Shown one piece after another: positions 23,766 to 24,485 of a stretch of 64,000 nucleotides of DNA. Position 1 is the first letter of the stretch. Each line of letters starts with the position of its first letter. The stretch lies in NCBI RefSeq assembly GCF_016903815.1, contig NZ_CP069973.1, one strand, 5' to 3'. This DNA comes from Escherichia coli (GTDB lineage Bacteria; Pseudomonadota; Gammaproteobacteria; Enterobacterales; Enterobacteriaceae). The notes beneath the pieces are model-generated. The model saw only the letters and a list, made by a program, of their open reading frames with translations, ran no database searches and was not told the DNA's origin. A program made the translations under genes and the position numbers.

Positions 23766-24485
23766 TGTGAATGTCAATTTCTTTGTCACCTGTATTGGTG
23801 ACGCCCTGAAATCAAGAATGGCACGAGACTCCGTGCTGCTACTGGAAAACTCGGCTGTCGCGTAAATTTCCCGGAGAAACAGGGATGCTGCGGTCAGCCT
23901 GCGATCAATAGTGGTTATATCAAAGAAGCGATTCCAGGGATGAAAAATCTGATCGCCGCACTGGAGGATAACGACGATCCCATTATTTCACCGGCTGGCT
24001 CCTGTACCTATGCCGTAAAAAGTTACCCAACGTATCTGGCGGATGAGCCTGAATGGGCATCACGTGCCGAAAAGGTTGCCGCGCGTATGCAGGATCTCAC
24101 CTCTTTTATTGTTAATACATTAGGGGTAGTCGATGTAGGTGCCAGTTTGCAAGGGAGAGCGGTGTATCACCCATCTTGTAGCCTGGCCCGTAAGCTGGGG
24201 GTGAAGGACGAGCCACTTATGCTGCTGAAAAATGTGCGTGGACTGGAGCTGTTGACCTTTGCTGAACAGGATACCTGCTGCGGATTTGGCGGCACGTTCT
24301 CGGTCAAAATGGCCGAAATATCCGGCGAGATGGTGAAAGAAAAGGTTGCGCACCTGATGGAAGTCCGCCCTGAGTATTTAATTGGTGCTGACGTGAGTTG
24401 CCTGCTGAACATCAGTGGGCGATTACAACGGGAAGGGCAGAAAGTCAAAGTAATGCATATTGCTGAAGTGCTGATGAGCCGCTGA
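23766..24485 (+). pseudogene. ykgE: LutA-type Cys-rich subunit gene disrupted by a 1-bp deletion in an A-run near 23845
   Basis: GTG-initiated frame gives VNVNFFVTCIGDALKSRMARDSVLLLE then stops (ENSAVA-stop); the adjacent frame continues LGCRVNFPEKQGCCGQPAINSGY... to the stop at 24485; restoring one A gives a 239-aa protein. Confidence 0.75.

Follow-up and report, generated by a model that had tools for sequence, protein, structure and literature searches.

The ykgE gene in the window analysed here (the whole stretch of 64,000 nucleotides of Escherichia coli DNA, contig NZ_CP069973.1) carries a one-base deletion, which we interpret, with a probability of about 0.92, as an inherited loss-of-function frameshift that would leave the YkgEFG complex inactive and is probably nearly neutral. 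The deletion breaks the gene inside a CCG domain, recurs in 90 complete genomes and is absent elsewhere. We propose that an A5 run at codon 28 of ykgE lost one A in an ancestor of a phylogroup D clone and that the frameshift allele was then passed on vertically within the clone; translation from the native GTG would stop after 32 residues, the LutA-type CCG-domain Fe-S subunit would not be made, and the YkgEFG (LutABC/LldEFG-type) respiratory L-lactate dehydrogenase would be inactive despite intact ykgF and ykgG. The frameshift is already known, being recorded in the RefSeq annotation, and mechanistically it is nothing new.

The locus measures 719 nt, as against 720 nt for the normal gene, and it comprises, together with the two genes downstream, the following features:

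23767..24485, plus strand: ykgE pseudogene, lutA/lldE-type CCG-domain Fe-S subunit, annotated by RefSeq with the same coordinates in strain 7/2.
23767..23865, plus strand: remnant ORF of the N-terminus, 32 aa long, with 27 native residues followed by NSAVA; of CCG domain 1 it keeps only Cys9.
23846..23849, plus strand: A4 run from which one base is missing, according to the alignment with GMF065 and the allele counts; the species-typical A5 form is GGAAAAAC.
23850..24485, plus strand: rest of ykgE out of frame, read in the -1 register and covering native codons 29-239.
23940..24485, plus strand: internal ORF of 181 aa, the sole possible restart product, lacking most of CCG domain 1 and keeping domain 2.
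24496..25923, plus strand: ykgF (lutB/lldF), intact, 475 aa, TIGR00273 at 777 bits (cut-off 444.8).
25916..26611, plus strand: ykgG (lutC/lldG), intact, 231 aa, LUD domain (Pfam PF02589, E = 5.5e-30).

The first-pass annotation had described a GTG-initiated frame with an early stop from about 23766, and such a frame is present, with its native start codon one base further on, at GTG 23767. It encodes VNVNFFVTCIGDALKSRMARDSVLLLE (27 native codons), continues out of frame with NSAVA and ends at a premature TAA (23863-23865) after 32 codons. A 1-bp deletion had likewise been placed at about 23844-23849; the deletion was borne out, while the run itself consists of the four A at 23846-23849 within GGAAAAC (23844-23850), and it is at this run that the gap falls in the alignment to the intact GMF065 allele. 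The -1 frame (register of 23769), reported as open to 24485, is stop-free on translation from 23802 to its stop at 24483-24485 and encodes KLGCRVNFPEKQGCCGQP...MSR. Inserting one A in silico gives 720 nt and, as had been predicted, a protein of 239 aa, which is 98% identical to K-12 YkgE.

In the repaired protein Pfam finds two CCG domains (PF02754), at residues 3-84 (E = 5e-15) and 133-216 (E = 3e-16), and codon 28, where the frame breaks, falls within the first of them, in agreement with the earlier remark that a CCG domain spans the junction. Only one of the nine cysteines of YkgE (9, 31, 41, 42, 80, 138, 171, 172 and 212), namely Cys9, precedes the break. Only the conceptually repaired YkgE unites both CCG domains in a single chain of about 240 aa, the actual ORFs breaking at residue 28. 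The initial identification of the gene as a lutA-like ykgE is supported by its identity to the K-12 protein, by the two CCG domains and by synteny with ykgF and ykgG, and the gene order rclR-ykgE-ykgF-ykgG-ykgH-betA is that of K-12. By domain content and synteny, the locus is a member of the LutA/LldE-type family, but by its interrupted frame it is a pseudogene. RefSeq labels ykgE as frameshifted in all three carriers inspected (7/2, 98228 and UID2309220007), and for strain 7/2, whose sequence is identical here, the label reads "ykgE, (Fe-S)-binding protein, frameshifted".

Downstream, ykgF and ykgG had been called intact, and both ORFs are complete with the expected domains. NCBIfam assigned no family to YkgG, which RefSeq names "LutC/YkgG family protein". 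Each of the two genes has a Shine-Dalgarno element 7 nt upstream (GAGGA for ykgF, GGAG for ykgG), which suggests that they may still be translated in the carriers. With Rho-dependent polarity in mind, the stretch of 630 nt left untranslated by the frameshift was checked by a base-composition heuristic; it is rich in G and not in C (187 G and 132 C, with a top C/G ratio of 1.5 over 80 nt) and shows no obvious rut-like region, a composition that does not predict strong polarity. Both the YkgF and YkgG proteins are identical to those of GMF065, in which ykgE is intact, and no decay was seen; this fits a recent event, and a residual role is possible. Between rclR and ykgE, a perfect GC hairpin, CCCCC-GGAA-GGGGGG, was also noted at 23709-23723; it precedes the start codon of ykgE by about 45 nt.

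The distribution of the allele was determined in 5,426 complete E. coli genomes, draft genomes and Shigella lying outside this set. With a 43-mer centred on the A4 run, for which megablast seeding is possible only at matching run length, the four-A allele was found in 90 of the 5,426 genomes, every match at 100%, and the five-A counterpart (44-mer) was found in 5,058. The in-frame allele in these 5,058 genomes disposes of the alternative, raised in the first-pass annotation, that intact homologues might also consist of two ORFs at this point. A 951-bp query around the lesion matched at least 40 complete E. coli genomes with 100% identity. The descriptions of the carriers cover 60 of the 90 matches; among these, the isolates had been collected in Sweden, China, the USA, Japan, Egypt, Thailand and other countries on several continents, their sources being human, dog, cat, cattle, pork, wild bird and water or environmental.

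Carrier WCHEC96200 has been reported as ST405, phylogroup D (PMC5762679), carrier WCHEC4533 was included in a genome comparison of ST405 (PMC9037040), and further carriers among the matches listed bear names with "405" or O102:H6. With ST405 membership documented in the literature for a few carriers, we infer that the carrier clone is ST405, phylogroup D, and that the deletion is fixed throughout ST405.

The repaired allele (952 nt) was 100% identical in NRZ14408, AST215 and LT599825, and the flanks of the NRZ14408 and AST215 loci were 98-99% identical to the window. When a repaired haplotype of 4.4 kb was used as the query, GMF065 alone ranked above the carriers, with A5, one synonymous SNP over the 4.4 kb and flanks about 98.5% identical to the window; besides GMF065, no genome had an intact ykgE within two mismatches of this haplotype of the clone. 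Since the flanks of the fetched loci of NRZ14408, AST215 and GMF065 are only 98-99% identical, these strains represent other lineages with the ancestral state, and the persistence of an identical intact allele in other lineages indicates that the deletion is derived. Neither reversion nor compensation of the frameshift was found among the carriers inspected. Two carriers that span 4,402 instead of 4,401 bp were considered as candidates for a compensating insertion, but the extra base is intergenic and ykgE is still frameshifted. This extra base lies in a T/A homopolymer between rclR and ykgE, at 23338 in UID2309220007 and at 23522 in 98228, and these differences may be polymorphisms or assembly errors.

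The rclR-ykgEFG-ykgH region (window 19635-27000) is a recombination mosaic, and its 4.4-kb haplotype is common to the clone and GMF065, the flanks of which are about 1.5% divergent. Two single-marker probes, meant to show whether the deletion is present in every member of the clone, were uninformative: a ykgH 53-mer matched 194 genomes (162 at 99% or more), including the unrelated ECONIH1, 4973 and E17, and a ykgG 47-mer matched 1,903 genomes and was not clone-specific. Because single markers are not clone-specific in such a mosaic, the repaired haplotype of 4.4 kb was used in their place.

Several other lesions were seen in the window and its relatives. An IS1 element of 768 bp (18867-19634, InsA and InsB ORFs at 18922-19619, with a 9-bp target duplication) is inserted towards the 3' end of an aldo/keto reductase gene, of whose 289 aa an ORF of 269 aa (18062-18871) is left. 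Strain 7/2, apart from this 100% identical to the window, does not have the element. The codA gene for cytosine deaminase (62624-63907) has a stop at codon 106 (62939-62941, ...KQRA*QTLKW...), and RefSeq labels codA of strain 7/2 "internal stop". The ykgL gene (4128-4353) is labelled "frameshifted" not only in strain 7/2 but in the unrelated lineages NRZ14408, AST215 and GMF065 as well; instead of an event specific to the clone, this may reflect a widespread pseudogene or a matter of annotation. Further, in the lineage of ECONIH1, 4973 and E17, an IS1 follows yahC directly and adjoins a truncated lacY or lacZ (ECONIH1 locus 22123-23656). This arrangement implies that the whole interval from yahD to lacY, which the window possesses, was lost there through an IS1-associated deletion.

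The codA W106* allele was found in 44 of the 5,426 genomes, and all the matches listed are ykgE-frameshift carriers, which makes it the marker of a subclade. The IS1 junction (18866/18867) occurs in two complete genomes only, strains 2779 and 5283, and the window is therefore probably from their sub-lineage. As both markers are nested within the carriers, the ykgE deletion is older than either.

In E. coli respiring nitrate, YkgEFG behaves as a respiratory L-lactate dehydrogenase (PMC9701030). Deletion of ykgEFG in strain MP1 lowered fitness in vitro only when L-lactate was combined with nitrate, and the mutant was unimpaired in two mouse colitis models, in which deletion of lldD did cause a defect (PMC9701030). 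We found lldP, lldR and lldD intact in carrier strain 7/2, and it is the retention of lldPRD, together with a requirement for YkgEFG limited to L-lactate under nitrate respiration in vitro, that leads us to regard the loss as probably nearly neutral. Another reading accepts the same lesion and holds that loss of YkgE was selected, aiding multidrug-resistant ST405 in the inflamed gut or the urinary tract, either through the lost nitrate-linked dehydrogenase or through YkgF and YkgG left without their partner, in which case A4 would be an adaptive marker of the clone. The presence of A4 in all observed carriers and the undecayed ykgF and ykgG are compatible with such selection; a literature search for ykgE together with ST405 found no paper linking the two among those searched, and we consider a selected loss improbable.

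It is also conceivable that the gene is split but partly functional, with the 181-aa fragment from ATG 23940 retaining CCG domain 2 and assembling with YkgF and YkgG. An in-frame ATG is present, the fragment still matches CCG-domain families, and both partner genes stay intact; its matches to NCBIfam profiles are confined to their C-terminal portion. The fragment would, however, be without Cys9, Cys31, Cys41 and Cys42 of CCG domain 1. From 23850 onwards the out-of-frame remainder has no ATG, GTG or TTG until ATG 23940, and the sole purine-rich element upstream of that codon (AGGG) abuts it, with no Shine-Dalgarno spacing, which makes an efficient restart unlikely, so that the 181-aa product is probably translated inefficiently. 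Moreover, HdrB, the closest solved relative, aligns across both CCG domains and not only the second. In the structures of HdrABC-MvhAGD, each CCG domain of HdrB reportedly contributes to a non-cubane [4Fe-4S] cluster. Taken together, a working half-protein appears highly improbable to us, and a gene that no longer yields its subunit is the reading we retain.

Programmed recoding, by a -1 ribosomal frameshift or by transcriptional slippage, could in theory yield full-length YkgE at a useful level, residue 28 being N or K. The shift required is indeed -1, the 0 and -1 frames are stop-free together for about 60 nt (23802-23862), and re-pairing of the A-site codon AAC on AAA is possible in principle. 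Nevertheless, a scan of the 0 frame (23767-23865) showed that the frame overlap has no slippery heptamer of the form X XXY YYZ, and a run of four A is far below the tract lengths known for slippage of RNA polymerase. Besides, the frameshift is not conserved in the family, in which the in-frame A5 prevails (5,058 of the 5,426 genomes), and so we rate recoding as very improbable.

Sequencing or assembly error, that is, a homopolymer miscall in one assembly of a gene that is really intact, was a caveat of the first-pass annotation and had to be considered, since a change of one base in homopolymer length is a typical form of error and the single-base differences in intergenic T/A runs of two carriers are themselves possible errors. 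The assembly of WCHEC96200, one of the carriers, was polished with Illumina reads (PMC5762679). The run at issue has merely four to five bases, A4 co-segregates with the codA W106* and IS1-junction markers of the clone, and the identical four-A 43-mer occurs in 90 genomes that were sequenced independently, in different laboratories and on different platforms, and in no other lineage. Recurrence on this scale excludes the caveat, which retains a negligible probability, and the A4 frameshift is a true mutation.

Equally negligible is phase variation, with the A run as a reversible on/off switch of the operon, for although the length polymorphism of a homopolymer inside a coding sequence would suit it, A4 is present in 90 of 90 carriers, A5 on a near-haplotype (two mismatches at most over 4.4 kb) occurs only in GMF065, which is of another lineage, and contingency loci normally have tracts of about seven or more bases.

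The inherited frameshift thus remains our preferred reading, and it has several implications. A clone with documented members of ST405, which is globally spread and multidrug-resistant, is predicted to be without the YkgEFG route for oxidising L-lactate and to depend on LldD. The A4 allele, codA W106* and the IS1 insertion are nested markers and could be used for sub-typing. For annotation, ykgE in this lineage should be given as a pseudogene, as RefSeq already does, and neither as two ORFs nor as a silently repaired gene.

When the locus is compared with known systems, the closest counterpart is YkgE of K-12 (b0306), which occupies the same place between rclR and ykgH/betA, has the same ykgF and ykgG downstream, and shares with the repaired protein the same two CCG domains and 98% of residues over 239 aa. 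The allele of the clone differs in missing one A at codon 28, which leaves 27 native residues, and the repaired protein has three substitutions relative to K-12 (E102A, T118K and M152T). LutABC of Bacillus subtilis and LldEFG of Shewanella oneidensis have the same composition of a CCG protein, a LutB/LldF Fe-S protein and a LUD-domain LutC; in the clone, by contrast, the LutA-type subunit is a pseudogene and an incomplete complex is predicted. HdrB, subunit B of heterodisulfide reductase (PDB 5odc_B), is the closest solved relative by sequence (residues 5-216), but the similarity is distant (E = 7e-5) and it belongs to another enzyme with another substrate; it serves only to gauge the effect of losing CCG domain 1. 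No feature sets the ykgE case apart from the clone-specific pseudogenes of pandemic E. coli, with which it shares a single-base frameshift in all observed members of the clone and younger inactivations nested within it.
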